64,000 nucleotides of DNA from an uncultured Armatimonadia bacterium (GTDB lineage Bacteria; Armatimonadota; Zipacnadia; CAVVLO01): positions 992,001 through 1,056,000 of the forward strand of contig CAVVLO010000002.1 of NCBI GenBank assembly GCA_963749155.1, read 5' to 3'. Under the pieces are notes generated by a model. The model was not told where the DNA came from. It was given only the letters and a program-made list of their open reading frames with translations, and did not search any database. Both the position numbers and the translations under genes were made by a program. This document shows, in pieces, positions 29,072-64,000 of the stretch. Each line of letters starts with the position of its first letter. Positions within the stretch are counted from its first letter, which is position 1.

Positions 29072-29076
29072 TTGAC

Positions 29077-30531: not shown

Positions 30532-30534
30532 AAG

Positions 30535-31479: not shown

Positions 31480-31498
31480 GAGAAGGCCCTCCCAGCAG

Positions 31499-32276: not shown

Positions 32277-32965
32277 AGTCTTTTTGGTTCCAGGGCGAAT
32301 CGGTAATACCATTCCAGTCCGTTGCGGGTTGCCCAGTCGGGGGCAGCCTGACCTCGGCTGGCAAGGCTGTCGAAAGTGGAGCCAATACCTACACTCACTG
32401 GCACCGCAAGCTCTTTAAGGTGAGTGGCCAGCCATTTCTCCTGTTTGGGAGCGCCAAAAGCCACGAATAACGCATCGGGAGTAGCAGCCTTGACGCGCGC
32501 GATGGTCTCGGAGTTCAGTTCTGCATCGCGCTCAAAACCAAGAGGCGGCGAATAACACCCAACTACCTTGAGTCCTGGATTGCGGCCTTCAAGCAACTGG
32601 GCTGCTTCTTCGGCAACGCCAGGGGCGGCTCCCAGAAAGAAGAGACGATATCCCCTGGCGGCAGCGCGCTCCGCAAAGGCGGGCAGCAGACGCGAGCCTG
32701 GCACATGGGCGGGCAGGGGCTCTCCCATCGCTTTTGCGGCCCACAGGAGCGGCCTGCCATCGGCGACCAGTAAGCGCGCCCGCCAATAGGCAGCGCGAAA
32801 AGCCGCATCTCGTCTGAAAGCATAGAGCTGGTTGACATTTACCGTGCACACAAGGCTTGGGACTCTCTCGGTAATATAGCTTTCCATCAGGTCGAGAGTC
32901 TCTTCAAAGCTCACTCGGTGCAACGGTACACCAGCCAGCACAGTTGTAAGGGGAGCTGGCAGCAA
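32183..32965 (-). CDS. WecB/TagA/CpsF family glycosyltransferase
   Basis: VADGRPL, FFLGA, FVAFGAPKQEKW, GLEWYYRFALEPKRLWKRY. Confidence 0.92.
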   Translation of the reverse strand: MLPAPLTTVLAGVPLHRVSFEETLDLMESYITERVPSLVCTVNVNQLYAFRRDAAFRAAYWRARLLVADGRPLLWAAKAMGEPLPAHVPGSRLLPAFAERAAARGYRLFFLGAAPGVAEEAAQLLEGRNPGLKVVGCYSPPLGFERDAELNSETIARVKAATPDALFVAFGAPKQEKWLATHLKELAVPVSVGIGSTFDSLASRGQAAPDWATRNGLEWYYRFALEPKRLWKRYLLENTRVLPTLACEILAHRISRSSRR

Positions 32966-33029
32966 GGCCCCTCCTAATTGCAGTTGGTTTGACAGGTATA
33001 TTGTAACCTACCACATATTAAGCCAAACG

Positions 33030-33968
33030 CTAGATACGTTTTCGTAACAACTCTAGTCGCAATCTGCGCAGGAAAGCCCCTCGAGTTGCCTTTTCGAGCT
33101 TGCAAAATCTGCGCCAGGTTAGAGCCGACACAGGCCGTCGGTCAGAGTATAACGAAGCAAGCTCATAGGAGAGTTTTCCTACAGCGCGCAGATACTGGCC
33201 ACAGATCCGGTTGCGCGCCGCTTGCAATCCATGACCAAGCAGGTGCATCGCCAGCCGCTCAGGCAGCGCCCAGCCTGGCACATGCCGTATATAGGTGGCA
33301 AGCCGATTGTGGAGATAATGGTAGAAACGCTCCTTGCCCCAGGAAAAGCGCCTGTCGGGCGAGACCTTGTGCAAAAGTCTGGAGTCAGGCCAGTACCAGA
33401 GACTATACCCCAGGTCCATCAAGCGCAAGGCAAGGGCTTCTTCTTCTCCGGAAAAGAAGTAGTCTTCATCGTAGCCACCAGCCCACCAAAAAACCTCTCG
33501 CTTTATCCCGCAGGCTCCCCCGGCGAAGACCACCGACTCAAAAGGTTCTCCCGCTTTGGCGAGCATATTGGCCGGATATACCCAGGAAGGGCCATCAAGT
33601 TCGCCTGAGTAGAAGTTATCAACTCGCATCGTAAGCACGGCGGCTTCAGGATGAGCCACAAAACCCGCCAGCAGCTCGCAAAGGGCATCAGGGGGCAACT
33701 CGGCATCATTGTCGAGGAACCAGAGCAAATCGCCTTTCGCCATCGAAGCCAGCAGATTACGGCCAGCAGCGACGCCGACATTTTGTTCGAGCCGCAGCAC
33801 ACGCACCTCGGGGAAGGCCGCCTCTATCGCTTCCACCGAACCGTCTTCAGAACCCTGATCTACGACCAGCACTTCATCCGGGGCAGTTTTAAGGCCTCGC
33901 AGGCTGGCCAGACAAGCCAGCGTATCGTCACGACGATTCCAGTTGAGCAGCAGGGCTGAGACCTGCAT
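33030..33968 (-). CDS. GT2 glycosyltransferase
   Basis: LLNWN, VVDQGSEDGS, NVGVAAGRN, FLDND, GGYDEDYF. Confidence 0.88.
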   Translation of the reverse strand: MQVSALLLNWNRRDDTLACLASLRGLKTAPDEVLVVDQGSEDGSVEAIEAAFPEVRVLRLEQNVGVAAGRNLLASMAKGDLLWFLDNDAELPPDALCELLAGFVAHPEAAVLTMRVDNFYSGELDGPSWVYPANMLAKAGEPFESVVFAGGACGIKREVFWWAGGYDEDYFFSGEEEALALRLMDLGYSLWYWPDSRLLHKVSPDRRFSWGKERFYHYLHNRLATYIRHVPGWALPERLAMHLLGHGLQAARNRICGQYLRAVGKLSYELASLYSDRRPVSALTWRRFCKLEKATRGAFLRRLRLELLRKRI

Positions 33969-38305: not shown

Positions 38306-39623
38306 ATGCCAAGGATAAGAGACCTGCTTAAGTGGTTGTATCCCGGGCTAGGAGTGAAGCGCTGGCTGCTAGCGCTCCTTGTCGGCACAGCCCTGGTTGC
38401 TTTTGGCCTGGCGCTGCTCGCCAAGGATGAGTTGCTGTTTGGTAACAACCGCCTGGTCGAGTGGGTGTATTTCAACACGGGTATATTGATTGCGCACAGT
38501 TGGTTTGGCGCGGTAATTATGCTGCTCGGATTACTCCTGCTTGGCTTTGCGCTTTCCCGATTGCTGCATACAATCGTTGATGTACTAAGACCTGCGGAAC
38601 ACGGGCAACTCGCGGACTTGCTGGTGCGCAAACGGTTCCTCGCCCATGGAGAAGAAATTGTTGCCCTGGGTGGCGGGACGGGCCTTTCTACCTTGCTACG
38701 CGGCATCAAGGAATACACCCGCAACATCAGCGCTGTGGTTACCGTGGCGGACGATGGCGGCAGCACGGGCCGGCTGAGGCGCGACTTCGGCATCCTGGCC
38801 CCTGGAGATTTGCGAAGCTGCCTGGCCGCGCTGGCAGATGCCGAGCCGCAGATGATGTCGCTACTGCAATACAGGTTTGATGAGCAAAGCAAGGAGCTGG
38901 AAGGCCATTCGCTCGGCAATCTGCTAATCACCGCGCTTACCAAGGTACAAGGCAATTTCTCTGACGGCTATCCAGGAACTAAGCAAAGTTCTGGCCATCC
39001 GCGGCCGGGTCTTGCCGGCGACCCTGGCCAATGTCGCGCTGGTGGGAGAACTGCTTAACGGCGAGCGCGTGGAGGGTGAAAGCAACATCCCCAAATCGCA
39101 TTTCCCCATCAGGAGGGTGTGGCTGGAACCCGAGAGTCCCCCTGCGGCGCCCGAGGTAATTGAAGCCTTGCAGAACGCCGCGGTCATCGTGGTCGGCCCA
39201 GGCAGCCTGTTCACCAGTCTGCTACCCAACCTGCTGGTGGCGGGAGTCACTGATGCCATCCGGGCCTCTGAGGCAGTGCGGGTCTATGTGTGCAATGTGA
39301 TGACCCAGCCGGGGGAGACTGACGGCTTCACCGCCGCGGACCATATAAAGCTGATTTACGCCCATACAGGGCCAGGCCTGTTCGATTATGTGCTGCTCAA
39401 TAGCCAGGAGCCTCCTACCGAAGTGCTCTCGCGCTACGACAACGTGGCCGCGGAGCTGGTATACAACGACCTCGATGAGCTAAGAGAGCTTGAATTGGAG
39501 CCAATTGAGCGCCCTCTATTGCAGGTGAGCGAGGTAATCCGCCACGATCCGGCGGCTCTGGCCGAGGCCTTGTTTACCCTGGTAGACAGGGGCCGGCCAC
39601 GTCCCCGAAAAAGGCGAAGCTAA
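38306..39623 (+). CDS. yvcK: gluconeogenesis factor YvcK with N-terminal membrane extension (+1 frameshift at ~38960)
   Basis: GGGTGLS, VTVADDGGSTGRLR, GHSLGNL; then GPGSLFTS, NVMTQPGET, RHDP in the shifted frame. Confidence 0.9.
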
Positions 39624-47505: not shown

Positions 47506-47537
47506 AAAACAAAGGCAGGGCCCAAAGGACCCTGCCT
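47506..47537 (-). terminator. intrinsic terminator ending the surface-protein cluster
   Basis: AGGCAGGG.CC/GG.CCCTGCCT hairpin followed on the minus strand by TTGTTTT. Confidence 0.7.
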
Positions 47538-47569
47538 CAATGATACCTGTTTCTGCCTGTTAGCTGAAC

Positions 47570-48409
47570 CTAGAAAGTCATACCAACGGTAATCATATGG
47601 AAGGGATCATCAAGATCAATCAGGCCATAATCGACTGTTGCCCTGCCAAAAGACAGGCCAGCGCCAACGCTCCAGACATCGGCTGGGTCGTTGTACCCGC
47701 CGCGAAGCAGCACCGGTACGCCCAGGAACTCGCCGAAGTCATACTCGCCACCGACTGCAAATCCGCGATCGACTTCATCGGCGACATCGAACAAGTCGGC
47801 CTCGAGCAGCAAGCCTGGCATCCAGTTGACCGCAACGCCCACATCGATGGTGGCAGCCAGCTTCTCACCAATCAGCGTATTGCTTGGGACGTTGCGCAAG
47901 ACAGCGGCGACTTTGCCCTCTTTGCCCAGGAAACCGAAGTCGTTCATTATGACGCCAAAATCGAGGGAAGTAGCCTCGGCATCATCAGCGCCATTATCAG
48001 CGGTGATCCATTTGGCAGAGATCCCGGCAACCAGGTCATCGTCCAGTTGATCCGCATAACCAATGACGAAGGTCTTGTAGTCAGTGCCAGGGTCATCGGC
48101 ATTGATGAAGTGATAACCGAGGGTGATTGCAGGATCGGTGTTGTTCTCTAGCGGCGCCCAGCAGAAGCCAAAAGCGCTCATATCTCCACCATCGGCGTCG
48201 AGACTGAAGCTCGCTCCGGCTTCTTTCTTTGGAAGCTCGAACACTCCGGCTGGGTTAACCAGTTGGGCATCGAAGCCTGTTGCGGTCGCGAGGACGGCGC
48301 CAGCCATTGCGGCTTCGCGCGCGCTGGGCACGGCAATCGGATTAGCCAAAGCCATAAGACTTACTGCAAGTAGTGCTGCGACTAGAGTGTAAATACTAAG
48401 ACGTTTCAT
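47570..48409 (-). CDS. PorV/PorQ-like (FadL-type) outer-membrane beta-barrel
   Basis: signal peptide; SAREAAMAGA.LA......A..VNPAG plug motif; GISAKWI, SLDFG, LRN, LRGGY, C-terminal HMITVGMTF. Confidence 0.7.
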   Translation of the reverse strand: MKRLSIYTLVAALLAVSLMALANPIAVPSAREAAMAGAVLATATGFDAQLVNPAGVFELPKKEAGASFSLDADGGDMSAFGFCWAPLENNTDPAITLGYHFINADDPGTDYKTFVIGYADQLDDDLVAGISAKWITADNGADDAEATSLDFGVIMNDFGFLGKEGKVAAVLRNVPSNTLIGEKLAATIDVGVAVNWMPGLLLEADLFDVADEVDRGFAVGGEYDFGEFLGVPVLLRGGYNDPADVWSVGAGLSFGRATVDYGLIDLDDPFHMITVGMTF

Positions 48410-48468
48410 TGTTCCACCTCGTTGGAGGAGTATAGGGTCGTGGGAGTATACCACAGGAAAGGAGGCAC

Positions 48469-50451
48469 TCAGAACAAGGTCTGACTGGTGGCAAGTTCGA
48501 GCCAGACACGATCTCGCGCCTCGGACCAGCGCAGCATCGCTGTTATGCCCTGGGTGAGTTTGCGTTGCAGGTTTACTTCGTAATCCTGATACGAATACCC
48601 GTTGCCTTTCTGGGTGAGCTGGTAGAAGTAGACAGACCACTTGTCATCAAGGCGGTAACTCTGGTTGGCATCCAGCGCGTAATCGCCTGACAGCAGGTCG
48701 TACCGGGAAGTCAGATAGGCCGAGAAATTGTATGAAGGTCGCCAGCGCAAGTTGAAAAGCAGGTCTTCGGAATGCGGGTAAGAAGTGTCGTAGCGTGCGG
48801 TATCCGAATAGGAATAGCGCACCGAGAAATACGAATTTCTACCGAGTTTCTTGTCCATTTCCAGGTTGAAAAGGAAACTGTGTTCGTTGGCTCCATCCAG
48901 CGCAATTCCCTGACCGAGTCGAAGTCGCGGAGTTAACTCGAAGCCCCCTCCCAAATCCCAGCCCTCATGCAGCAAATCGAAACCAGCGGAAAAAGAAGTG
49001 CGGTCGGGAAGGGTCATCCGGTTATCGTAGAGCACATCGAAGTTGCCACGCCAACGCAAGTCAGAAAAACCTGGCAGCGGTTCTACCCGGGTTTGATACC
49101 GCCATCTGCCGCTGAGGTCGCCGTTGGCATCTCCCCCCTGTTTGCTGTAGTAGGTGGTAAAACTGGTAGAACCGTTATCGGAATATTTGTAAGTAGTGCC
49201 GGACAGATAGAGATAATCATGCCGGGGATAACCGACTGTAAAGTAAGTCGAGTTGTCCATATCGGATTGCAGGGTCGCGTTGAGGCGTAAACCCCAGTCG
49301 CTGCGCGTTATGTTGTCGACATCGAAGATAAACTTGTCATCGGGACGTGGAGAGTATTGCTCCTCAAGGCCAAGCGACCAGCCGGTGCCGGCCTCCCACT
49401 CGCCAAGAGAGCCTCGCATAAGCCGGACTGCCCCTACGCGCTTTTCACTGACTGCATAGAAGAAGGGCAAGTCTACTTCGAGCCCGTCGCTGCTGCTGAC
49501 TCCAAGCTTGGGATTTAGTACATCGGCTCCATAACTGAGGGGCACAAAATAGTAGGGCAGACTGAGTACGCGTTGATCGTCCACATAGACTTTCGCGCGC
49601 TCGCACAAGACTTTCTCGCCAGGGTAGATGACAGCCCTGCGGCAGACAATAGCCAGTCGGTCATCGATGGAATCGATAGGAAGGAAAGCCTCCGAGGGGA
49701 TACCGGCTTCTGCAAACTCATCCAGCCGAGAACCACAGAAACCCCTGGTGCGCAGGCGTTCTTCGCGGCAAATAATCGCCCCAACTTTGGCAGAGACATC
49801 CATCCAGAGGGCCTCGCCCTCCCAGGTAGAGCCGCCCTCTACATCGCTGACCGCTTTTACGTTGCCGCGCGCCTTGAGCACCGAGCGGTCGACATCGTAG
49901 GCCAGCGATTTGGCCTCTACATGCAAGGAGCGATAGCTAAAGACCGCGTTGCCCTGCGCCTCGCACACCTGAGAGTCCACGCCATAACGCACCCAGTCGC
50001 CCTTTACATGCATCAACTGCCAGCCACCGGTATCGCGTCCTACTTCGGCGGAGAACTCGATGCTAAGGCGCCCTTCGCCGTTGTTGGTGCGTTCGGTGGC
50101 TATGATGGTAGCCACGCCTTCTTTGACATCACTGGTAAGTGTGGTGCGAGCGATGCCGCCTTCGGTGGTTGCTATACTGGGGTCAAGCTGGCCTAGATCG
50201 GTGGAGAAAGAGATCTCAGTGCCATCAGCAACAGGATGCCCAGAGGAGGTGCTGACAGAAGCGGTGATTTCAGTAGTGCTTGCGCCATCCGCTTCGAGGA
50301 TATCGCGCGAAGCTGTAAGTTTTATGTAGGTGTCGCGAACGTCGGCCAGGGCAATTGACCCCACCGTGGCCACCAGCACCAGACCCAAGGCCAGCGCGAC
50401 CCAGACTCTCAACTTCACCCTCGTTTCCAGCTTGTTTAGAAAGAGGGCCAC
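48469..50451 (-). CDS. Big_1 Ig-like domain + OstA/LptD-like jellyroll + beta-barrel protein (alternative start 50418)
   Basis: signal peptide; LEADGASTTEITA...PVADGTEISFSTDLG; AQGNAVF...AKSLAYD...LKARGNV; LSLPYYFVPL; aromatic-rich strands, terminal Phe. Confidence 0.6.
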   Translation of the reverse strand: MALFLNKLETRVKLRVWVALALGLVLVATVGSIALADVRDTYIKLTASRDILEADGASTTEITASVSTSSGHPVADGTEISFSTDLGQLDPSIATTEGGIARTTLTSDVKEGVATIIATERTNNGEGRLSIEFSAEVGRDTGGWQLMHVKGDWVRYGVDSQVCEAQGNAVFSYRSLHVEAKSLAYDVDRSVLKARGNVKAVSDVEGGSTWEGEALWMDVSAKVGAIICREERLRTRGFCGSRLDEFAEAGIPSEAFLPIDSIDDRLAIVCRRAVIYPGEKVLCERAKVYVDDQRVLSLPYYFVPLSYGADVLNPKLGVSSSDGLEVDLPFFYAVSEKRVGAVRLMRGSLGEWEAGTGWSLGLEEQYSPRPDDKFIFDVDNITRSDWGLRLNATLQSDMDNSTYFTVGYPRHDYLYLSGTTYKYSDNGSTSFTTYYSKQGGDANGDLSGRWRYQTRVEPLPGFSDLRWRGNFDVLYDNRMTLPDRTSFSAGFDLLHEGWDLGGGFELTPRLRLGQGIALDGANEHSFLFNLEMDKKLGRNSYFSVRYSYSDTARYDTSYPHSEDLLFNLRWRPSYNFSAYLTSRYDLLSGDYALDANQSYRLDDKWSVYFYQLTQKGNGYSYQDYEVNLQRKLTQGITAMLRWSEARDRVWLELATSQTLF

Positions 50452-50494
50452 CTCCCGAAGGTGGTGGCCCTAATAATCTCAGACTTGGCTCTTC

Positions 50495-51154
50495 TTACTC
50501 CTCGGGAGTAGCGGTGGCAACTGGTTCCGCCAGCACAATAACCTGTGAGAGCAACTTGGTAGCCGCATTGCGCACTGCGGCTCTCGCTGCTGCCTCCTCG
50601 GTGAGGGCTGCCTCCAGGCCACTATCAGCAATTGCGATCCCAGTAAAGGCCAAAGTGATATCTGACAAAGGCACTTGAGTGTAAGGATCGGTATTGGAGG
50701 CGACTTCTACCAGAGTTAGCCCAAGGCCAGCAGCCCCTTTACAGGTGCCACTTTCCTCGGTCAAGGCCGAGCAGCTTATTACACGTGGGACCAATACATA
50801 ATCAGCCCCGACAGCTATACCAAGCTTCACCGCGCGGCGTGGCTCAGTGATACGATCCCAGTCAGACTGCGTGACATTACCCGTAACTAGCGCCCGCTGG
50901 AAAATCGGCGACCTGGTATGGAGGAAGAAAGGCTTGAACTGCACAGCCTCTCCGTTGAACATTACAGGCTGAGAAAGCTGCCTTTGAAGCAGGTTGCCAT
51001 ATTCGCCGCTGCTAATTGCCAGCGAACCATTTTCCGCCTGCAAGGCGACCACTGCAAGTGACACCGTGCGTATTGGCGCTGCCTCATCCTGGGCCAACCC
51101 AAGACCGCAGGTAAGTATCACCATTATAAGCAAGCATCCGATAAGCCGAAGCAT
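50495..51154 (-). CDS. secreted protein with possible CsgG/TolB-N-like alpha/beta fold
   Basis: signal peptide; SLAVVAL; AVKLGIAVGADYVL. Confidence 0.45.
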   Translation of the reverse strand: MLRLIGCLLIMVILTCGLGLAQDEAAPIRTVSLAVVALQAENGSLAISSGEYGNLLQRQLSQPVMFNGEAVQFKPFFLHTRSPIFQRALVTGNVTQSDWDRITEPRRAVKLGIAVGADYVLVPRVISCSALTEESGTCKGAAGLGLTLVEVASNTDPYTQVPLSDITLAFTGIAIADSGLEAALTEEAAARAAVRNAATKLLSQVIVLAEPVATATPEE

Positions 51155-51178
51155 CCGATGATCCTCCTCCGCAAGCGG

Positions 51179-53761
51179 CTAGTTCACAGTAATAATACGG
51201 CTGGCGTTGAAACGCTGACCATCAGCCGTCTCGGCGACGAGTTCGAGTTGATACGGACCGGTAGGTACCTGGCGACCAGACTGATCAAGGCCGTCCCAGA
51301 TCAGGGTGTTGCCACCCTGGTCGGCGCCAGCGGAGCTTGTTACGGTCCGGACAACGCTACCTGCCAGGTTGCGCACAGTTAAGGTTACCTGGGCAGGTTC
51401 GCCCAGTGTGAAGTCTATGCTGTATCCGCCCGCCTTGGAGGGCGCGCATACCAGCGCAGTAACGAGCGCAGCGGACTGAGCCCTGGGCTCGGCGATAATC
51501 GTGAAGCTGCGAGCCACACCGCGCGCTGGAGCTGTATAGCTATAGTTGCTGCTGGTGCGCATAAAGGTACGCTGGCCAGTCGCTTCATCCACCATTACAA
51601 GCTGCATGTCGCGCGGGATACTCGAAAGGTCGGACCAGCTCAATGTGACGTCGCCAGTCTCTTCGCCAGCTTCTACAACGAAGTTCCAGATGATACGAGG
51701 CGCTGAATCCTGCCTGATGTCAGAGGCAAGAGCCAGTCCGCCATCATCGAAATAGGCGCGCAGCATATCGCTGCCAGGCCCGCGTGGCGCCTCGTCTACA
51801 TCACAGAGGCTGTAACCCTGGAAGTCCTGCTCGGAAACACCCAGGAAGTTTTCCACATCGGCCCTGCCAGCCGTACGGACGGCAATCTGGGCCTGCCAGG
51901 TTGGCTTTACAGGTTCTTCCTCGGCCCGGCGAATGAGTGCGGCCTCGGTGAACCTCAACCTGACGTCCGACTTGAGCGCGCGGACCCAATAACCAGCCCA
52001 TGGGGCCAGTTTCGCGCCATCTTCCTGAGACCAGCCAAACTCATACTGGCCAGTCAGGGGGTTGATCTCATCCTGAGCCCACCTGTAGAAGACATTCTTT
52101 ATCCAACCGCGCTGAGCGGCTTCCTGAAGGCTGACTTCCAGATCCTCGTCTCCAACAAGGCGAACCGCGGTTATCCCATCAAGCGATGTGCCCCGTGGGA
52201 AAGGCGACCCAACAATATTCCAGCCGTTCCCGAGCGCAAGCTCGTAATCAAAGGGCGAGAACACGGTGGAAGTGCCAGCCAGTGCCACGTTGGTCGGGCC
52301 AAAGAGCTTGAGCCAATAACCGCGCCCAGGCTCCAGGTTGAAAGCCGTGGTTGGGTAGTTGGTATAGGCGCCAGCTTCAGGATCGTATCGGTAGAGCAAG
52401 GGCTCGAAACCCATCGCTGTGGCCGCATCTGCCGGAGTGCAGCGGAAGGGGAAGGAGACCATAAGGACGCCGCCAGGCAGCTCTTCGCGAGGAGTGGCTG
52501 GCAACTGGATCATTCGGCTGAGGCTCTTGGCGCCAGGAGGCGCGCAACTCGAGATAACTCGTATCTCTTGCTCTCCGCTGTATCCGGCCTTTGGCTTTAC
52601 GCGCCAGTTAACTGTCTGTTCTCTACGAGCGATTATGTTGTCAACAGGTTTGGTTGGTAGCTCACCAGCAACCAGCTCGAGGCTGTCGGGCAGTACGATA
52701 GTCATTGAGGCCGAAGTCAGTGTAGCTGTAGCCTGATTGGCGATAGCAGCATACACGCGGAAAGGATCGGGGCTCAGGTAACCATCTTCAGTTGCTGGAG
52801 TCGCAGGATTATCGCCACTGAAATAGCGCAGTCCGAGAGGACTGGAAACCGACAGGCAATAGTCGCCTTCGAAGTCGTTGTCGGAGAAACCTACTCCGTA
52901 ACGATAAGCGAACTCGATGCTTTTGCCAGCAGGCAGAAGCACGTTATCCCACCACAGCGCTACCGCGCTGTCGAAAACGATTGGCATTCCAGTGGTGGTA
53001 TAGTCGAAATCCGTTGCCGAGATGAGCGGCCAGGCGGCCACAACAAACTTGCTGGGGCGTTGGTATCCGTCCATACGGACAGTGCCAGCGGCCATCACAG
53101 CAGGATAATCCGCATTGTCATAAGCTAGATAGGAATCAGGTACTCTGCTTCCTGTCCAGGTATATTCCTCGGTAAAGATGCCTTCGCCCAGGACTTTGAT
53201 AGGCGCGCCATCGTTTACCCCGAGTTGGGTGTCCAGCATCTGCCTGAGCCCGATTGTCTGCGAGGTATCGCCCTCGTTAGTGACCGTGAACTTGCAGAAC
53301 ACGGCATCGTGGATCAGGTAGAGATCCTGCTGCACTGTTATCGGGATCGCTTCATCGCCGGTACCGTAGACGCAGCTAAATTGATTGCTGGCTACCTGCG
53401 CGGGCGTCGTGACGAACTCGGTATCTTCACCCAGCACGAAATCGCTGGGATCATCATCGCTACCGAGCCCAGGATACACGCGCAGGGTTGCGAAAGAGGT
53501 GCCTTCGCCCGGATAGGTCAGCGCGAGGCTGGAATCCGAAGCGATAGCTGGATCGCCGCCAGTCGTGTAGAGAACCCACTGACCGGTCTCATCGTCCAGG
53601 GCAACCTCGATGTAGGGGTTGGTCACCGTCAGTGTAGCCCTGGTTAAAGCCGCACCCTTCTCTCTGGCGAAGGCGAAGCCCGCCAGTCCAAGCAGCAAGC
53701 AGTATGCAAGCGAAAAAGCCGTCAACACAAGCAGCCTTCTCGACGAGCGCAAAGCCGTCAT
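51179..53761 (-). CDS. secreted protein with shared C-terminal module ending in a FlgD-Ig domain
   Basis: signal peptide from ATG 53761; IGLRQMLDTQLGVNDGAP; C-terminal VRNLAGSVVR...WDGLDQSGRQVPTGPY. Confidence 0.75.
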   Translation of the reverse strand: MTALRSSRRLLVLTAFSLAYCLLLGLAGFAFAREKGAALTRATLTVTNPYIEVALDDETGQWVLYTTGGDPAIASDSSLALTYPGEGTSFATLRVYPGLGSDDDPSDFVLGEDTEFVTTPAQVASNQFSCVYGTGDEAIPITVQQDLYLIHDAVFCKFTVTNEGDTSQTIGLRQMLDTQLGVNDGAPIKVLGEGIFTEEYTWTGSRVPDSYLAYDNADYPAVMAAGTVRMDGYQRPSKFVVAAWPLISATDFDYTTTGMPIVFDSAVALWWDNVLLPAGKSIEFAYRYGVGFSDNDFEGDYCLSVSSPLGLRYFSGDNPATPATEDGYLSPDPFRVYAAIANQATATLTSASMTIVLPDSLELVAGELPTKPVDNIIARREQTVNWRVKPKAGYSGEQEIRVISSCAPPGAKSLSRMIQLPATPREELPGGVLMVSFPFRCTPADAATAMGFEPLLYRYDPEAGAYTNYPTTAFNLEPGRGYWLKLFGPTNVALAGTSTVFSPFDYELALGNGWNIVGSPFPRGTSLDGITAVRLVGDEDLEVSLQEAAQRGWIKNVFYRWAQDEINPLTGQYEFGWSQEDGAKLAPWAGYWVRALKSDVRLRFTEAALIRRAEEEPVKPTWQAQIAVRTAGRADVENFLGVSEQDFQGYSLCDVDEAPRGPGSDMLRAYFDDGGLALASDIRQDSAPRIIWNFVVEAGEETGDVTLSWSDLSSIPRDMQLVMVDEATGQRTFMRTSSNYSYTAPARGVARSFTIIAEPRAQSAALVTALVCAPSKAGGYSIDFTLGEPAQVTLTVRNLAGSVVRTVTSSAGADQGGNTLIWDGLDQSGRQVPTGPYQLELVAETADGQRFNASRIITVN

Positions 53762-53824
53762 CGGATGTTCCCCCTTGGCATCTCCAACTGGCGCATAACC
53801 GCAGGTCAAAGCGACCAATAGCCG

Positions 53825-56786
53825 CTATTTTAGAACGACGAAGGTCCGTGAAGCTCTTACCACACGACCTTCAGCGTCGACCGCCTGCACCTCTACAGCG
53901 TAGGTGCCATTGCTGACAGGTCGGCCGGCTTCATCGAGGCCGGTCCAGACCAGTTCGTTGTGGCCCTGCGCCATAAGCTGGCCGGTAGCCACTTGCTTGA
54001 TGAGCGAGCCGGCCAGGTTGTAGACCTTTACTGTTACATAAGCGTCGGACGACAGATCGAACACAAGAGACGCGCTACCCTTGGTATCCGCAGTATCGGC
54101 AGCCAGGCCTGTAACGGCCAGGGCGCCTTCCTGCCTGGGTTGCATTACGAGACTGAAGTTACTCTCAGCAGCAGCCGCTGTGAAGGTGTAAGCGCCACTG
54201 GTGCGCATTGCCCGGCGCGCCCCAGTCTGTTGATCGATAAGTACCAGATCAACCTCACGCGGCACACTGGCCAGATCGGGCCAGCTAACAGTTACCTGCT
54301 CGCCCTGTCCAGCAGAAGCGACTGTAAACAGCCACTCCTTGGTAAGGCCGGCTGCGCTCTTGATATCCTGCGCGAAGCTGCCCGAGCGTGTCAGGTCGGT
54401 GAAAGCAAGTCCCAGACCGAGTGGACTCATTGGCGGCTCGTAGACATCGAGGTCATCGGAACCATCCAGTGCTCCTGCAGCTACACCAAAGTAGTTGCTG
54501 CGGTCGATAGCCTGCTCGGTACTAACCATCAGCTGAGCCTTCCAGCCCTCGAATTCCTCGAGACCTGGCAAAGAGCGACCCGACGGAGCGGGCAGCACCA
54601 TCAGCTTGCATGGCTTCAATACGCGCACCCAGTAACCGAGCCATGGCCTCAGCACGCCATCTGGAGCGGTATCCCAGTCATAGCCTGAACCTGGCTCATA
54701 CCAGTAGATAGTAGGCTTGATCCAGCCGGCCGCTGAAGCTTCTACAACACTCTTGATCTCCGTATTCCGTTGTACCAGCACAGTACCCCAGTCAACCGCG
54801 AAGTTGAAAGGACAAGCGATCATATGCCAGCCAACGACCAGATCGCCGCCGCTTCCATCATCAATCGTGAAGGAAGCAGGTGCAACCTGTGCGCCTTCGA
54901 TATTTGCGAGGGCAGGTCCTGCCCGGCGTACCCACAGGCCCATACCCGGCAGCACGTGGTCGACGCTGAAGTCGTATTCAACTCCGCCCGAATCCCACCT
55001 TACCGTCCAGTCTGGTCCGGCAAACACATAAGCCGGCGCATCGAAGGACGGCTCGATGTCATAAGGCACTCCAAGCAGTTGCAAGCCATCATCGATGGTC
55101 TTGAACTCAAGCTCGAAGGTTGTATCGTCACTGTCGGTCGTATCGTTCTCGTCCTTGGCCGTAACCTCGATCGTATGCAAGCCAGGGACCAGGGTGCTGA
55201 TATCCATAACATGATCAAGCAAACCATTAACAAGGCTGGCAGTGATGTCCACTTCTGGATCATCATCGAGCTTAAGCAACACTTCAGTAATGGTCGAAGT
55301 ACCCTCAGGGATCAAAGCGATGGAACCGTAGACTCTCAGCCTGCGACCTGACAGCACTTCGTCTTCCGAGGGCGAAAGCAAGGTGACGCGAACGAGTGGA
55401 TCTACGCCAACCTGGGCATCGAAAGTCATCTCACTGCCTGAAGCCGAGATGTTACTGACAGCGACGTTGCTATCTACGTCGCCTTGCAGATCAGTATTTG
55501 GGGTAGTGGTGCCATCGATTTCAGTGGCTCCAGCGGGATACAAGTCCGTCCCATCGCCCCAGTTACCGGCTGCATAATCATAGAGATCGCCAGCTCCATC
55601 AGCCTGAAGCAGATCAACGCCATACCAGGTGGGATCGGCGTTCACGTTGTTAAGGCCATTAGAGTAGTTATACTGCACAAGGCCCTGATCTACCCGGTAG
55701 ATGGCAAGTCCATCACCCGGCAGATAGGTGTCGAAGCCAACCCGCTGGCGGTTCTCCAGCAAGAAGAAGACATCGGACAACTCGTCGCCATTCGGGAAGA
55801 GGGTGACGATTTCTTTGCTGGTCTCGGCTCGATTGATTTCTACATCCGTGGCGTTGGCCAGGATCTGAGTCTCACGAACCCAGCCCAGCAGGCGTCTGTT
55901 GTAGCCATCAATCATACTGGGCACTGTGCCATCCAAAGTGGGGCCGTTCCAGGAGCCTGCACCCATAAGCGACCAGAGACCCAAACCGAAACCCTGGTAG
56001 GAGACATCATACATATCCAGCAGGCCCAGGTTGTGACCCAGCTCGTGAGCGAAGGCGCCTGTCTTCTCATTTTCGCCACCGAACATAAACCAGTCAATCT
56101 TTACGCCGTCGACCTCGATAGGCTCCAGGCCGAATACATCACTAAGGGTAGCGTAAAAGGTGGCGAAATCCGCAGAACTGCCGGTTTCCTGCCAGGTGTC
56201 TCCGGCGGCAACAACCCAAACGGCATCTACATAGCCATCGCCATTGGCGTCAAAGTCGGAGAAGTCCAGTTCATCATCGGCAATCAGTACAGCTTCCTTC
56301 AGGACTGTGGCACAGTTAGGCTCGCTGGCGGCGACCCCTCCCACTCCCTGAGTGTAATAGGACCTGTTGCGATCCAGCTCATACCAGCCGCCTACTTCGC
56401 CGGTGATGGTAAGAGGCGACACGCCAGGCACATCACTGGAAGCGGCTATATAGAAGCTATGAACGCTGTTTGGATTAGCCGGATTGAAAACAATATTGTC
56501 AAAAGTTGCTAACGTATGCGCCGCATCGTGCTTCACATCATTGAAATCAACAAGCAACACAACTCCCCTGTAAGGTCCTTCTACAGGCGGAGTCGGCTTG
56601 ATGACCGGATGCCCAGGCTCTTCGCCGGCACGCGAGCGCTCGACCAGACCCTTATAAAGCTGCACCATCTGCGGATCTGGATCGACTCCCGGCTTGAACT
56701 GGTAGCGCGATGGCCAGGGTAGCCATCGCCATCACAGCCATCAGTATAAGGAAAATTGCCAGGCTTCTGTAAGCGCGCGATTCCAT
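53825..56786 (-). CDS. M6 family (immune inhibitor A-like) metalloprotease with Ig domain and shared FlgD-Ig C-terminal module (+1 frameshift at ~56699)
   Basis: signal peptide MESRAYRSLAIFLILMAVMAMATLAIA at 56786; VLLVDFND, DFDANGDGYVD, AHELGHNLGLLDMYD, WSLMGAGSW, LENRQ. Confidence 0.88.
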
Positions 56787-56903
56787 CTGAACCCCCTAGT
56801 CCCAACTACTCCGGACAGGTGTGCGCCGGACAGGTTCGATACTAGCTAACAGCACTCCGGGGAGAAGGCCGGAAGACCCTCTCCCCGGCATTAGTCAAGT
56901 CGT

Positions 56904-58751
56904 TTACGGAGGATCTGGCGGGCCCTCAGCGGGCTCGAACTGCCAGACTTCGCTCCATACATAACCTTCGTCTTCAAGCCTGCCAGTCGAGCTGATAGGC
57001 CTTACTTCATCGTTGGAATTGCGCGCTCCGACCCTCCAGAAGAGGTTAGTGTCGGACGGCAGGCTGTCGAATACAGCCTCGATGTTGTAGATACCAGTCA
57101 TCGGAGTACCACCGGACAGATACTCGGTACGCTCAGAACTGGTCCAGGTCTCGTCGCTATCGAACTCGCCACTTGTGGATACTTGAACAATGTAGCGATT
57201 CGCTCCATCCACTGCGTCCCATTCAGGCTCGAAGGCTGCAAGATCGACACCTTGCGACTGATTATCGGGAGCGACCAGCGGTATCGGTTCAAGTGGCGTA
57301 GCGGGGCCACACTGGGTGGGCTCGCCGCGCTGGACAGTCGAGGTCTGAGTGATCTCTTCGCCCGACGTCTGCTGCTGTACCCGGATGATTACACGCAGCA
57401 CCTTGTAGTAGTAGCTGGTGCCCACCGAAGGAGGCGTATGGAAGAAGCTTGCCTCATAGGTGTTGTTGCTGCCGGAACCGACAGAGATGGTAGCAGTGTC
57501 GCCTGGATCGCCCACAGACCAGTCATAGCTGCCATCGTCGGCGGCGGTAAAGGTCACGGTGTTCCCATAGAAATTAGGCCTGTCAACCCAGGTCAGCGCG
57601 CCGCCATCATAGATGACGTCGACCAAGGTTTCGGCGCTAACATTGAAGTCGCGATACTGGCTCCTGTGTATCTCGTAACCTGCCACGTAACTGCCCGCAG
57701 TGGTAGGATGGGTATAGGGATTGCTGCTGCGATCCCATACCAGGCGGGTAGCATAACCGTCACTTGTGGCTGCAGCTTCGAGGTCTGAAACCTCGGCCGT
57801 ATCTGCACCACCACTACTCGAGATGGACAGCAGTCCAGCTACGATTGCAAGACCAAGCAGCCAGTTAACGTGCTTCTTCTTCTTCTTTTTACTTTCGGCA
57901 GCCTTCACGGTCTTGGTAGGCGTGTAGATTGCGATTGCCCTGTCCCGGGCCTTGATGCCTTCAGGGGCCTTTATGGCCTGACCGGTGGCGCTTATGGGAT
58001 CAGTGGCAATGATCTTGATACGCCCAACGTTCTCCCGCACGAGTTCCTGACGATCTGGATACCAGACGTCACGCAGGAGGACCATCAGCATACCTTCCTC
58101 GATGCCCTGGCGTGCGCCAGCGCTGAGGGAGATCTTGCCAGAGGCATCCTGCATCAGAACCTGAGCCTGAGCAGGTTTGTAAGTGGCCATCTGCGTGGCA
58201 ATGTGAGTGGCGGCTTCCGTCATCACATCGTCCATTAGCAGATCGGAAGCGCCCGTGAATCCGGGCTTGTCGACCGTAGCCGCTCCCGCGCCACCATTCA
58301 TATATTCGCCGATGGTAGTATCAAACAGTTGGCACTCCATTAACACGGCGGCGCTGGACTCGGTGAGTGCGGACGTTGAGATATCACCTATCACAACTCC
58401 CGCCAGGTCCAGTTCCTTCGCGAGTTCTACCCAGTTGAACTGGTTCAATGGGTAGGAGAGGCCTAACCGCTCCATCGCGCGCTGCATCTCTTCGCGTGAG
58501 ACTACCTCGAAAGTACCGGTAGCCTCCAACTGAACCGCGAGAGCGTCAGCAGCTTTACGGCCTAGCATTGCATCCTTGACTTCGCTATTGTTGTTGAAGT
58601 CAAGGACAGCGACCTGGGTGGCGACGCCAGCGGCCGTGGCAGGGCTGGTGGTAACCATTGCCAGGTTTGATAACACCACACCTGCAATGAAGCAGAGGAT
58701 CGTTAAGTGCGATAGCGCCTTGGCCGCCAGGCTTTTCCGGAAGCGCAGCAT
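56904..58751 (-). CDS. CsgG/HfaB-like + FlgT-C-like + internal TM + FN3-like protein
   Basis: signal peptide; VAVLDFNNNS...LEATGTFEVVSRE; SAGARQGIEEGM; KKKKKKH followed by hydrophobic helix; GYEIHRS, YYYKV, FWRV. Confidence 0.6.
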   Translation of the reverse strand: MLRFRKSLAAKALSHLTILCFIAGVVLSNLAMVTTSPATAAGVATQVAVLDFNNNSEVKDAMLGRKAADALAVQLEATGTFEVVSREEMQRAMERLGLSYPLNQFNWVELAKELDLAGVVIGDISTSALTESSAAVLMECQLFDTTIGEYMNGGAGAATVDKPGFTGASDLLMDDVMTEAATHIATQMATYKPAQAQVLMQDASGKISLSAGARQGIEEGMLMVLLRDVWYPDRQELVRENVGRIKIIATDPISATGQAIKAPEGIKARDRAIAIYTPTKTVKAAESKKKKKKHVNWLLGLAIVAGLLSISSSGGADTAEVSDLEAAATSDGYATRLVWDRSSNPYTHPTTAGSYVAGYEIHRSQYRDFNVSAETLVDVIYDGGALTWVDRPNFYGNTVTFTAADDGSYDWSVGDPGDTATISVGSGSNNTYEASFFHTPPSVGTSYYYKVLRVIIRVQQQTSGEEITQTSTVQRGEPTQCGPATPLEPIPLVAPDNQSQGVDLAAFEPEWDAVDGANRYIVQVSTSGEFDSDETWTSSERTEYLSGGTPMTGIYNIEAVFDSLPSDTNLFWRVGARNSNDEVRPISSTGRLEDEGYVWSEVWQFEPAEGPPDPP

Positions 58752-58864
58752 TCGTTGTCCCTCCTGACACGTTGGGCTCGTGCTTGGCTGTTATTCAGGT
58801 TGTTTCCGCAATCGTTCAGCCGGACGGCCCAGTACTAGCCCGAGCCGTCCGGGTTCATCCCATT

Positions 58865-61800
58865 CTACCGCAACACTACCATCGTGCGGAACACAGTCAA
58901 AGTCTCCCCAGACTCACTGCTGGCTGTGACCTTTACGAGGTAGCTACCGTTGGGCAGCTCTCGCCCGCCGTTATCGGTACCGTCCCACGGTACCTCTACA
59001 GTTCCAGTCGCGTGCAGCATATCCTGCTCGAGGCTCTTAACCAGGGTTCCACCAAGATTATATATGGCGGTCGTAACATAAGCTTCCTGGCTCAGAGTAT
59101 ACCGAACGGTACCGGTTCCCTTTGTTGTGGCATCGGCCGCAAGGCCAGTTACCGCAAGCGCGCCGATAGCTTCCTTGGTCACGATAACCTGCAGCTGCTT
59201 CGTCTGGTCGCCGGCGCGACTTGCCACCGGGAAGGTGTAACTGCTGGCTGTCCTCATGAACACTGTCTTGCCTGTGTCGGGATCAACCAGGACTACCTTG
59301 TATTCGCGCGGTAGCGCGGACAAGTCGTTCCACGTGAGGGCGACTTGGCCGCCAGGCACGTTGGTTTGAACGGTCAGGTCATACACTTCGCGCACGGTGT
59401 CGGCAGCGCGGATATCCACGCCGAGGCCTTCTCCAGCGCGCACTGCTGCGCCCAGGCTGATGTCCACATACTGGACACTGGTCAGCGGAGCGGGCTTCAC
59501 GATGTCATAGAGATTATCAAGTGAGGCCGTAGCGTCCGTGGCGGCGCCTACTACAGCGCTTCCACCGGGCATACCGTTCACACTTGTCTCCAGCTCGAAG
59601 TTCCAGGCTGTCTCGAAAGGCAGACCGCCAGGCAGCTCCGCCGTGAGGCTTCTGACGGAACGCTTCGGCACCGAGATGCCAACCACGTTGGTGTTCTTCA
59701 CAAGCAGCCAGTAGCCCTTCCAGGCGGCCATCCCGCTTGCGAGCTCGTAAGTCGCGGTGGTGCCCTTCTGCATCCACAGGGCGCTGCCGATGTCGCCATC
59801 CGCCGCAGCCTGCATGATGGGCTTGGTGCCGCCGCCGCCGTAGCTAATGACCAGGTCGTACCAGCTAACTGGATTCGCGAAAGGCATACCGATCATATTC
59901 CAGCCCTCGCCCAGTGGCACGACATACGGGTCAGTCAGTATCTCCGTAGGTACTGCCTGCACGGAGACCCCTGCCTCGGACAGCATCCAATAACCTCTGC
60001 CTGGCAGGACACTTGTGATCTCCCCGGTTGGGAAGACATAGTCGTAGTCGAGAGAGGCCCTGTTCCAGTAGGCCAGGTTGCCAATTGTAATGTTGGTAAG
60101 CCCAAGTACCGACGCCGGTGTGTTCGGGGCGAAGGTGCCAGGCACCGACATCAGGAACAGACCAGAGGTCCAGGCGTAAGGCGGCTTCATTACGAAGTTG
60201 ATGCCGCTTGTAGTCAGGCCCGGAGCCACTGTGGCTGCGCGGTAGGTCGGGTCAGGCGTAAGTGCCCCACCCGGTACCGGGACAACCCAGTAGTCGCCAG
60301 ACTCAACATTAAGGAACTGGTAGTTGTATCCAGCATTGGTGTTGGTCGCGGTGCTGTAGAGGGCCGCGCCACCGCCGACAGGTTGCAATTCGACCGTCAC
60401 GCCACCGAGCGGAGCGCTTGTGGCCTCATCGGTCACAAGGCCGCGCAGGTTGCCAGGTGGCAGCTTCTCGAGTTCGAAGTCCTGCAGTGTGCCACCTGCC
60501 GGCGTGATTACTACGATAGCCGACTCGCTCGAGTAGCCAATCGCGCTTGCGATTGCGGTATAAGTCCCCGAAGGCACCTCGTCGAGGTAGGTCGGGATGG
60601 TGTCGTCATCGAACCAGAACGCATAACGGCCATCCGCCAGCGTCGTGGTATCGAGGTCATCGCTATCGATGTCCTTTATGATGTTGCCGGAGCCATCTTC
60701 GAGCCGGACACGCGCTCCAGCGATACCAACACCAGGGGCGTCATCGCCGGTAACCTCGCCATACATATGGCCAGGCTCGCCAGCCAGGACGAAGTCAATT
60801 CCCGTAGTGGTCTGCCCGGGATTGACTGTGACCGGGTTGTCCTCGTAATCCTGCGGACTGTAGCCAGTCGCCTCACAGCGACAGTTGTAATCCGCAGTTG
60901 GCAGGTCGGGTATGACATAGTTGCCGTTTACATCGGTGTAGGCATCACCCGTAACAGGCGTGCCGACCACCGTATCCTCAGTGGCTATGACATGCGCGCC
61001 GAAGACCGGGTTGCCCTGGTCGTCCTCGACGTGGCCGGAAATAGCTCCATTGGGCGCCTCGGTAAGCTGGGTGAAGGCCGCGCGCGTAATGCTGCCATCT
61101 TCCACCGTCGCGCCGTTGCTATGGTCAATTGTATAGCCAGCTTTGGTCGCATTGATGCCATAGTTGCCAGGTGGCAAGCCCTCAAACAGGTACTCGCCAT
61201 CGGCGCCTGTAATTGCATTGAAGGTACCGCCACCGCCGCCGATAGTCACGACTGCGCCCTCGAGCGGCGCCAGGCCGTTCTTCAGCACTACTCTACCTGA
61301 CAGCGAGCCAGTGCGCAGGAAGCCCGAGATGTTCTTGAGCAAGCGGCTACGCCTGTTATGGCTGATGATATGGCGGAAAGTCGTGTCGCCTACTGTGATG
61401 TCGATAGCCTGGTAATCGCGCCGGATGCCCTCCATGCCGAAGGAGGCAAAGACGGCGCGCCGGTTGGCCGAGTTCTGATAGGCCACCATACCCTGACCGC
61501 CACCGTTGAAGGTGAAGGCGGTCGTGGCATTGGCAGCCAGGTTGACCGCGTCTACCCAGCCCTGGTTCAAAGGCGCGTCGCCGCGCCCACCATTGGCGTC
61601 ATAGCCACCGCGCATTTGAAGCGTACTGTTGTGGTAGAGAGTATCGCCCGGACCGTCTGGGATGTTCATCCAGAAGCCGTTCGAGCCGCTCTCACCCAGG
61701 CTGTAGTTGGAAAGGGTGCCCCCTGCGCCGGTCAGTTGGTGCCTGGCCACCCAGTTGTCACCGGCCGTGTCACTGGCATAAGTGACGCCGAAGTAGTTGG

Positions 61801-64000
61801 TTAAGGAAGGCGCTCGGCGCGGCCCCATTGAGGGTCAGCGCCCAGGCGACGTCCTGGCCCGAGAGCACCATCCGGCCGCCCTGGTCCATAAAAGTCTGCA
61901 GCCTGCCCTGAACCGCCAGGTCGCGGATGGTACCCGCGCCTGTCCAGAGGTCGCCTGTATAAGGCGAGAGCCAGACGACGAACTTCTCGTTGACCTGACG
62001 AGCTAGCCCGGTGACCGGGTCAGTTGTCATACGGGGCAGGAAGTTAGCCAGCACATCCGTAGTTATCGGGCCACGGCATAGCACGCGCCAGACATCCACA
62101 TTGTCATACAATCCGGCACTCAGGTTGTAATAGAAGACCTTAAGCGGGAAGTCAGTACTGTAATCTACGGTCTCGCTACCCAGGTTTTGGGTGCCTCGTG
62201 CCAGATACACTCGGCTATGCCAGGTGCGTATGTCATTGTTCTGACCCGCGCCGAAGATCGCCGAGTCCTCATACCACATCGCATAGACCGGATTATCGTA
62301 GTCCGGATCTTTCGTATAGAAAGGTAGTGGCGAGGTCAGCAGATAATGGTCTACCGGTATGCCTACGACCCCGTATCGGTTGGAGCCTGCGCCTATATAC
62401 CCCTCGTTAATGCTGCCGATGAACTTCTGGCCGCAAGCATAATCGGAGATATACAGGATGCGACTGCCACCAACGAAGGGCTTGGTAGTGAAGCCGGTAA
62501 TGTTGTCGTAGCCGTAAGCAAGGTTGATTCCGCCAGTGAAGTTGTAGGAGGTAATGTAATTGCCCACAACATCGAAGGGCACGATGTCTACGTAGTAGTC
62601 GATCTCGCGGTTTGGCGTAGTCCAGGTGTTGGAATACACTCCATCATTGGCAGCGCCATCACCGTGAGCGCCGTCGTCATAAAGGCGGCGGCCCCAAGCG
62701 GCAACATTACCCACATTAAAGTCCAGGATTCCGGCTGTCGTGCCGGTATTCGCGTTGATGACATAGTAGTTGCGCTCTTTGTAAGTCATCAAAGTGGCGC
62801 CTTTGTCATCGCCTGGAATTATCCAGTCATCATCGGTGTTGTCATAGGTCTCAGTACCCCATTGGGCGTCATCGGCGTCATGGAATACAGCCCAGACCTG
62901 CCCTACACCTGATTCACCATCAGAAACTCTTGCCGTGATCCGGATGGTGGAGCCAGGATTGAAAGCTTTACGTTCGAGCCCTGTGCCCGGGTCTGTGATA
63001 ACAGGCAGAGCATTCAATATTGGCGGGTTGATGTCATCAATGCTGACAACCCAGATATTGACGCCATTATCCTCGGCCAGGTCTGGAGTAAAGTTGGGAT
63101 CCATCCAGCCGGTATAGTCGCGCTCGGTGGTGAAGGCGGTCTTGGGGTTGGCCCAGGTGTCGAAACCAGGCGTCGGCGTGGCCGCAATCGGCGCTGAGGA
63201 GGGGTCAACATCATCGAAGTTGTTCTTGCGGCCAATCGGGATCTGTGCGCTGGTGTTCGGCAGCAGGGCATCTGGGCCCTGGATGACGTTCCAGGTACCT
63301 GTATTCCTTATAACAGCCCGGAAGATGTCGAAATCGCCGTTCTCGTCGGAGGCAAAGACAATCAAGGCATAGGCGCCAGAAGTATCAAAAGCGACTATTT
63401 CAGGCTCCTGGTTGTTGCTGGCTGCCACGAGAGAGAGCTGCTGGGTGTCCGTTGCGGCGTAACCGAGCCAACGGGCAATCCAGCACTGCTTGCTGGCCTG
63501 AGTCGAGTCTGCGCTGTCAAGCAAACCCGCTGTGCCGCCGGAATCTACGCTGTCGCTGGTGAAGATGAGTGAGCCGTTGTAAAGCTTGGGATCGGTCTCT
63601 TCGCCAGGGCCCCCCTCGATTTGCACAACACCCGAACCATCGAGGTTGACCATCCAAAGGTCAGTGCCGGTGCCCAAGCCCGTGTCAGCCTGCAAGATGA
63701 TACCGGCGCCGTCAGGACGCCAGGCGGGATGGCGGGCGCCATTGGGGAAGTCGGCGGCATAGGTGATCTGGATAAGGGCAGAGGTAATAGTGTCATAATA
63801 GTAGATCTGATAAGCCGAATCAGGCATAGCCTTGGCTTTGCGGGCAAAGGCAATACGGGTGCCTGAAGGCGACCAGATAGGTTCGATTTCATCCGTTGTG
63901 TCGCTGGCGTAAAGCTTGACCTTGCCAGAGCCATCCGGATTCATCGTCCAGAGATCGTAGTTGTCCTCGACCCCGGCCGCATCCGCCGCAGAATCGCGGT
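58865..64000 (-). CDS. very large secreted protein, 5' end beyond window: PD40/TolB propeller, choice-of-anchor-X-like motif, carboxypeptidase-regulatory-like repeats, shared FlgD-Ig module (+1 frameshift at ~61801)
   Basis: PIWSPSGTRIAF, PAWRPDG; LYDDGAHGDGAANDGVY; four GxLSGxV...GxY...GxY repeats; WDGTDNGGRELPNGSY; reading frame open to 64000. Confidence 0.8.

Follow-up and report, generated by a model that had tools for sequence, protein, structure and literature searches.

A gene cluster of Armatimonadota encoding very large exported proteins with a common C-terminal module and an LptD-shaped barrel: a candidate surface display system

Gene content of the locus and the shared C-terminal module

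A 64,000-nt stretch of DNA from an uncultured bacterium of the little-studied phylum Armatimonadota (the window, in whose coordinates all positions are given) ends in a cluster of genes for large exported proteins and predicted outer-membrane barrels, all encoded on the minus strand (Table 1). From 47570 to the window end, the listing of open reading frames (ORFs) gives eight co-oriented minus-strand ORFs, which we call A to H, with spacings from A to H of -59, 113, 235, 6, 24, 43 and 59 nt. Because relatives in the Fimbriimonadaceae encode A and B as single ORFs (1787 and 1828 aa) that span both parts, we count seven genes, not eight, and all seven appear from their sequences to carry signal peptides. 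The hairpin that closes the block (read from 47538 to 47512) is the strongest terminator-like site in the region and lies directly before uvrB and uvrC; over the whole scan, terminator-like sites showed no excess, with 10 observed vs 11.7 expected from shuffles. The initial annotation of this DNA had described at least seven co-oriented genes ending at one terminator, which agrees with the corrected count, and signal peptides on all six complete genes, which holds overall except that the signal peptide of D lies in another frame within the window.

Table 1. Features of the cluster in the 64,000-nt window
Feature	Position	Strand	Description
A (N-terminal part of AB)	61770..64000 (ORF 61770..64379, start outside the window)	-	Predicted signal peptide, PD40/TolB-like propeller repeats, choice-of-anchor X
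B (C-terminal part of AB)	58865..61828	-	4-5 CarboxypepD_reg, ~395-residue tail module, terminal FlgD_ig
C	56904..58751	-	Predicted signal peptide, LpoB/CsgG/TolB_N-like domain, second hydrophobic helix (~298-316), Fn3-like domains
D	53825..56786 (ORF 53825..56668; signal-peptide ATG 56786)	-	M6 metalloprotease, tail module, FlgD_ig
E	51179..53818	-	Predicted signal peptide, conserved ~450-residue N-domain, tail module, FlgD_ig
F	50495..51154	-	Small, predicted exported LpoB/CsgG/LptE-like protein, directly upstream of G; short form
G	48469..50451	-	Predicted signal peptide, Big_1 Ig domain, beta-jellyroll-like region (~residues 147-300), large C-terminal barrel ending in Phe
H	47570..48409 (from the internal Met preceding the signal peptide)	-	279-aa predicted PorV/PorQ-family outer-membrane barrel
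Terminator-like hairpin	47512..47538	-	Closes the block; 12-bp stem, 8 GC pairs, T-rich tail

The three large proteins AB, D and E share their C-terminal region. B, D and E can be aligned over ~400 C-terminal residues, and each ends in a FlgD_ig domain (PF13860) at its extreme C-terminus, as had been proposed for these three putative cargo proteins, with Pfam scores of 45.7 bits (B), 42.6 bits (D) and 44.2 bits (E) vs a cut-off of 27. They account for all three strong FlgD_ig matches in the whole genome; in addition, one weak match lies ~30 kb away. An AlphaFold2 (AF2) model of the tail module has a predicted local distance difference test (pLDDT) score of 85.2 and folds into four beta-sandwich domains. 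In fold comparison, the last of these domains matches the Vpr fibril domain (Z 13.8), the C-terminal domain (CTD) of PorU (Z 10.9, root-mean-square deviation (rmsd) 2.9, 94 aligned), the PorZ CTD (Z 10.3) and FlgD (Z 9.5). The tail alignment comprises 34 tails taken from the fetched loci, and the tail profile run against PDB sequences finds FlgD (9.4e-12) and the PorU CTD (1.4e-5). The likeness of these tails to type IX secretion system (T9SS) CTDs, initially suspected from the FlgD-Ig domains, is thus borne out both by sequence and by fold. The weak FlgD_ig match belongs to a fourth module protein of 982 aa (G000:C2:1080593-1083541; L076:5593-8541). Two uncharacterised ORFs (582 and 545 aa) and a pyruvyl transferase precede it, and it lies ~2 kb upstream of the LptC-like and LptA-like genes mentioned below.

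The N-terminal parts of the module proteins differ. Within AB, Pfam assigns PD40 in A and CarboxypepD_reg in B (131.7 bits), and NCBIfam assigns a choice-of-anchor X domain in A (38.6 bits vs a cut-off of 25). The earlier description of a giant propeller/repeat protein with a FlgD-Ig tail stands, although the gene is split over two ORFs and starts outside the window. D has Peptidase_M6 in Pfam, TIGR03296 in NCBIfam (151.5 bits vs a cut-off of 110.8) and a HELGH (HExxH) motif in its translation, placing it among the M6 metalloproteases. All 14 proteins examined at position D across the phylum are proteases, nine of S8, three of C11 and one of C39-like type, with the protein of the window as the one M6 member; the tail module aligns in all 14, and its terminal FlgD_ig was flagged by Pfam in 12. 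A protease at this position is therefore constant while its catalytic class varies between lineages. The N-domain of E, which is present in 11 of the 24 G-centred neighbourhoods described below, has no match in PDB sequences (best E 0.11) nor in NCBIfam. Three Fimbriimonadaceae loci (L024, L029 and L033) have, between E and G, a ~1080-1090-aa protein that carries fn3 and two Big_1/Invasin_D3 domains and takes the place of the small F.

Two reading frames in the cluster are interrupted. A and B overlap in different frames, with an apparent frameshift near 61801/61802, and one extra base at 56697 puts the signal peptide of D out of frame. We compared the contigs of four public runs over 56500-62000. 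Base 56697 is missing from the single covering contig in each of the four other assemblies, and the frame of D is open for 989 codons once it is removed. At the A/B junction, read cover was thin and no indel was reported; a single contig from run X4 (depth 2.3) would fit one T fewer, which is weak evidence. A third apparent frameshift divides a CofD/YvcK-like gene at 38306-39620 on the plus strand, whose two overlapping ORFs correspond to profile positions 1-102 and 118-289. Since this housekeeping gene is also split, the apparent frameshifts in AB and D are probably assembly indels. A contig from a metatranscriptomic library (run X13, 3256 nt, ~95% identity) covers 56502-59575, that is, the 5' end of D, the whole of C and the 3' end of B, which does not imply transcription; near-identical DNA to this interval also occurs in contigs from sediment, wastewater, digester and soil metagenome runs.

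Outer-membrane barrels and their partners

G is predicted to be an LptD-shaped outer-membrane barrel. Pfam assigns its Big_1 domain with 37.5 bits, and the AF2 model (12 sequences, pLDDT 79.9) consists of the Ig domain, a strand-rich segment at residues 147-300 and a large barrel; about 26 strands were counted by hand in G from the DSSP assignment of the model. In Foldseek, full-length LptD structures came first (2.4e-14 to 1.5e-11, with a low template modelling (TM) score of ~0.3), followed by ushers (~1e-6) and barrel-only LptD entries (7.6e-6 to 1e-4). That full-length LptD outscores the barrel-only entries suggests that the region preceding the barrel of G matches the LptD jellyroll. In a VIA comparison of the barrel, 22-strand TonB-dependent transporters (Z 16.6) and LptD (Z 15.1, rmsd 5.3, 319 aligned) tie. 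In nine of 13 sampled genomes of the family we label f33, a second protein of ~440-630 aa matches only the jellyroll-like region of G (~131-320), with E values of 4.0e-12 to 6.7e-8 (examples are G133:C1:3954861-3955379 and G058:C2:114204-114770).

These matches raise the question of whether G, with F and C, is the LptD-LptE translocon of the phylum, the large proteins being either envelope genes that happen to be encoded alongside or extra subunits of a lipopolysaccharide (LPS) translocon enlarged in the manner recently reported for Bacteroidota. The cluster would then be no display system of its own. We consider this explanation, the main alternative to the display complex proposed below, possible, though on balance doubtful. 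The genomic setting speaks for it: LpxC is encoded immediately upstream of the window start, which together with the assignment to Armatimonadota bears out the earlier placement of the host among diderm Terrabacteria, and LptC-like and LptA-like genes lie in the same genome ~30 kb from the cluster, but no large protein with LptD_N (PF03968) and no match to Pfam LptD (PF04453) was found in this genome. It should be noted that, among the control genomes, the PF04453 model matched only the two proteobacterial ones. According to passages of PMC5007114, Armatimonadetes carry core LPS genes, and no LptD/E homologues were found in diderm Firmicutes; passages of a preprint on the LPS translocon of Bacteroidota (bioRxiv 10.64898/2026.10.03.756453) describe extra barrels and Ig-domain subunits and the export of surface lipoproteins. 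The family-level evidence is less favourable to an LptD-LptE identity, as neither G nor any of its 12 aligned homologues matches Pfam LptD or LptD_N at E<=1, hhalign of G with the LptA-like protein of the genome gives a probability of only 4.7%, and the VIA tie leaves TonB-dependent transporters level with LptD.

C and F appear from their sequences to contain LpoB/CsgG/LptE-like domains of periplasmic type. The initial annotation had called both CsgG-like. The presence of LpoB/CsgG-like domains in the two proteins stands, but the CsgG match of C (PF03783) is borderline and partial (21.3 bits vs 20.8, covering 47 of 210 profile positions, within 10-64), and F has no Pfam match. F is likened to LpoB and CsgG through language-model features and through its family, and C also resembles LpoB, CsgG and FlgT by such features. 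In 16 of 26 loci, the gene directly upstream of G is a relative recovered by an iterative search that started from F. Among 18 members of the F family, four match LpoB (best 1.2e-7), three FlgT_M, two LptE (0.014), two CsgG and six fn3; the LpoB and LptE matches would suit an LptE-like partner of G, whereas the F-family profile found nothing in PDB sequences at E<=10. In most members of both families (12 of 16 homologues of C and 16 of 18 members of the F family), a second, conserved hydrophobic helix separates the LpoB-like domain from the Fn3 part; the F of the window has neither this helix nor the Fn3 domain seen in its relatives. The topology is puzzling in C of the window and in the C and F homologues of L024-L073, where either the Fn3 part would be cytoplasmic or the second helix would cross the outer membrane. 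Neither C nor F has a lipobox before the mature N-terminus, and no evidence of a transmembrane hairpin was found in them. The suggestion of a CsgG-type channel finds no support in the two proteins.

H appears to be a divergent member of the PorV/PorQ family, neither an ordinary FadL nor an equivalog of PorV or PorQ. By itself, H scores 44.5 bits with PorV_fam (NF033709), under the cut-off of 90, and has no Pfam match. A HMMER search of 1.84 billion representatives returned 30 homologues at E<=1e-3, of which 22 were aligned after matches that were long or in several stretches had been excluded. All 22 match PorV_fam (best 4.2e-62), 18 PorVQ2, 14 PorQ and 14 PorV, and the H-family profile finds PorV (6h3i_F, 5.1e-24), TodX (1.3e-8) and FadL (1e-3) in the PDB. 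The family matches and the profile scores place H nearer PorV than FadL, as the initial annotation had it. Word-index homologue searches returned two matches for H, and two and five for G.

The presence of H beside tails resembling those of PorU and PorZ would fit the T9SS-like model of the initial annotation, with H as the shuttle that binds cargo by its FlgD-Ig tails and carries it to a CsgG-type or LptD-type channel. PorU and PorZ dock on PorV and PorQ, and a protease and a propeller protein that end in CTD-like tails are reminiscent of these two. Type B CTDs are, according to passages of PMC11611037, sometimes labelled as FlgD_ig superfamily. Set against this are the low score of H alone, the lack of evident CsgG channel features in C and F and, above all, the distribution of H described in the next section, which weakens the model; we judge it unlikely. 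Complex prediction of H with the FlgD-Ig tail (score 0.00, mark 0.32) gave no verdict and weighs neither way.

We searched the genome for canonical T9SS components, which the initial annotation had reported missing from the window. SprA (TIGR04189) reached at best 21.1 bits vs a cut-off of 200, a result whose model gave no match in any control genome either, so that absence is unproven; the same holds for GldL (TIGR03513), GldM (TIGR03517) and GldN (TIGR03523), none of which was found while the control genomes were silent too. At E<=0.01, the genome has no match to the type A CTD model (TIGR04183, Por_Secre_tail). The claim thus extends from the window to the genome as far as these searches go, with most of the models silent in the controls. 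PorU (NF033707) reached at best 65.9 bits vs a cut-off of 420. This best match is a 642-aa protein on another contig (G000:C3:660019-661947; L077:3019-4947) with Propeptide_C25 and Peptidase_C25 (270.6 bits), a member of the gingipain/PorU family in which no CTD was detected.

Conservation of the cluster across Armatimonadota

The cluster is kept throughout Armatimonadota, with G and one or two C/F-type partners as its stable core. In a sample of 401 genomes of the phylum, our own included, the G profile (E<=1e-5) matches 389, mostly over the full length and mostly once per genome, and the tail module (E<=1e-10, up to four candidates scored per genome) matches 377. The PorV-family profile (E<=1e-5) matches 231 genomes, many of them partially, and H as a single sequence (E<=1e-3) matches 23. 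The phylum-wide co-occurrence that the initial annotation had named as a check is seen for the module and G, but not for the PorV-like barrel. The counts concern this phylum only; a scan with the G alignment over one genome per species gave five loci, all in Armatimonadota. That G is near-universal and mostly single-copy is what one would expect of an LptD.

We then collected 24 G-centred neighbourhoods, 20 of them from diverse families and four from f33, each taking in ~15 kb on the upstream side of G and 3 kb on the downstream side. The C/F family is represented beside G in 22 of them. Module proteins occur in 17, with two or more in 12, and an H-like gene, within the 3 kb downstream, occurs in one. 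The linkage of cargo, C and G is thus conserved as had been predicted, and the gene order AB-C-protease-E-X-G-H recurs in the Fimbriimonadaceae, a different class of the phylum. An arrangement of neighbouring envelope genes without a functional link could be read from the G genes that have no module gene nearby (L066, L072, L074 and the four f33 loci). We regard this as very improbable, given that the same order recurs in different classes, that the only FlgD_ig proteins of the genome are concentrated here and that the intergenic gaps are short and followed by a single strong terminator; the conserved gene order led us to reject a chance neighbourhood.

H is not the conserved partner of the cluster. 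By coordinate comparison, it lies directly beside G in 14 genomes from five families (f1, f8, f13, f26 and f27); at least 19 other genomes have the two on separate contigs or at a large distance from each other. PorV-like barrels and module proteins also part company at the family level, with PorV-family matches in 5 of 32 genomes of f18 and 7 of 23 of f24 vs the module in 32 of 32 and 23 of 23, respectively. Conversely, f27 has the G-H pair without a cargo gene nearby, and strong PorV-like matches occur in four of the 13 listed genomes of f33, where the module has no match. This pattern, which counts against a shuttle built on H, leaves the proposal of PorV as a general adaptor unsupported.

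Two lineages separate G from the cargo or from LPS synthesis. All 13 sampled genomes of f33 keep G, and a C/F-type gene usually stands directly upstream of it (three of four loci), while no module match was found in any of the 13. G and C/F thus have a role independent of the cargo, a pattern that would be natural for an LptD-LptE translocon. In the genus labelled g47, five of six genomes, one of them a single contig, lack G even at E<=1. All five have LpxC and four of them also lack a module match; the sixth has both G and module proteins. LPS synthesis can therefore exist without G, and G and the cargo were lost together, which argues against G as the translocon wherever LPS is made. The f33 and g47 patterns probably represent a single evolutionary event each. 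A search of g47 for LptD_N found only multi-OstA ORFs of 631-788 aa and no clear LptD; these tandem LptD_N/OstA-repeat ORFs (e.g. L082, G046:C1:3689181-3690233) are reminiscent of the very long LptA bridge reported in Bacteroidota.

Other envelope genes lie in the window. A run of polysaccharide or glycan biosynthesis genes at 28379-33968 on the minus strand and just upstream of the window encodes GT2, a SIS-domain protein, UbiA, an epimerase, a sugar transferase and WecG. Six tandem paralogues of 530-608 aa at 11166-22517 on the plus strand each have an N-terminal SLH domain; they may be OmpM-like porins with which a diderm Terrabacterium tethers its outer membrane.

A possible display complex around G and its relation to known systems

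From the observed gene content, domain folds, conservation and co-location, we infer a surface location, docking and the roles of G and H as follows. AB, D and E would cross the inner membrane by Sec export, and their common C-terminal module of ~395 residues would act as both address and anchor, docking the giant proteins on an outer-membrane complex of G and C/F and holding them at or on the outer membrane. In most families, three or four very large proteins with predicted Sec export (the AB propeller giant, the protease D and E among them) are joined to this core, and H would supplement it as a further outer-membrane subunit next to G in this lineage and in four more families. We favour this tail-directed display tentatively and give it a little less than an even chance. 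The confinement of FlgD_ig to module proteins in the genome, the co-loss of the module and G in g47 and the choice-of-anchor X domain in A support it, as do the CTD-like last domain of the module, the phylum-wide conservation of G and the module, the recurring gene order and the constant protease at position D.

Several points weigh against this interpretation. The propeller is TolB-like, and it and the proteases could equally be periplasmic. The module proteins have no lipobox in their sequences, which indicates that they are not lipoproteins, and the known LptD route for surface lipoproteins is thus not directly transferable to them. The independent role of G and C/F seen in f33 means that the core does not exist for the cargo alone. 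Foldseek and VIA were informative on the module for its last domain only, so that its first three domains have barely been compared with known folds. Finally, the 401 genomes are related to each other and are not independent samples.

Going beyond tail-directed display, an LptD-derived barrel with an LpoB/LptE-like partner may have been recruited as an outer-membrane translocon and anchor for non-lipoprotein giants that are addressed by the four-domain C-terminal module with its CTD-like last domain. This more specific proposal, which we hold to be rather unlikely, fits the co-loss of G and the module in LpxC-positive genomes of g47. If true, the LPS translocon and T9SS-style C-terminal sorting would be linked in a new kind of system that exports and displays proteins at the outer membrane. 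How the outer membrane of diderm Terrabacteria is built and decorated is poorly known, and the cluster offers a concrete candidate for the LPS translocon of Armatimonadota; it could also be a T9SS-free route that places non-lipoproteins at the surface. The question is timely, as LptD has been shown to export surface lipoproteins in Bacteroidota, according to the passages of the translocon preprint cited above. In the literature on Armatimonadota with T9SS or LptD/Lpt, or on FlgD with T9SS/PorV, from which most subscription journals were outside our scope, we found no description of the cluster.

The system closest in its cargo is the T9SS of Bacteroidota with PorU, PorV, PorZ and PorQ. Both have large Sec-exported proteins with an Ig-like C-terminal domain, which here matches the PorU and PorZ CTDs by fold and that of PorU by sequence; the tail is carried by a protease and a propeller protein, and a PorV/PorQ-family barrel is encoded alongside in this genome. 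In contrast to the T9SS, the genome yielded no SprA, GldL/M/N, PorU equivalog or TIGR04183 tail, with most of these models silent in the controls too, the tail belongs to a four-domain module, and the protease is of S8, C11, C39-like or M6 type where the T9SS has a C25 sortase. The PorV-like gene stands beside the cluster in only five families, and the barrel that is conserved here is LptD-shaped. T9SS is described as confined to Bacteroidetes or the FCB group in passages of PMC11611037 and PMC12398890. The cluster does not appear to be a canonical T9SS and looks like an undescribed route of surface placement rather than a T9SS.

The proteins of the core resemble parts of other systems. The N-domain of C and the F family are similar to CsgG/LpoB/TolB_N-like proteins, including LpoB, CsgG and FlgT_M, but C covers only a small part of the CsgG profile and has no lipobox, and in place of a transmembrane hairpin there is one conserved hydrophobic helix with Fn3 domains after it. 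G is similar to the LptDE translocon in having a predicted large barrel after a jellyroll-like region and a small LpoB/LptE-like gene directly upstream, whereas it differs in its N-terminal Big_1 domain, in the lack of a Pfam LptD or LptD_N signal, in having non-lipoproteins as putative clients and in being missing from five LpxC-positive genomes. The LptD homologue of Borrelia, treated in passages of bioRxiv 10.1101/2022.12.21.521298, is a further system for comparison. The enlarged LPS translocon of Bacteroidota, as far as it is described in passages of bioRxiv 10.64898/2026.10.03.756453, shares with the cluster the extra barrels and Ig-domain proteins that accompany G, and by analogy H may be a lineage-specific extra barrel like those of that translocon.

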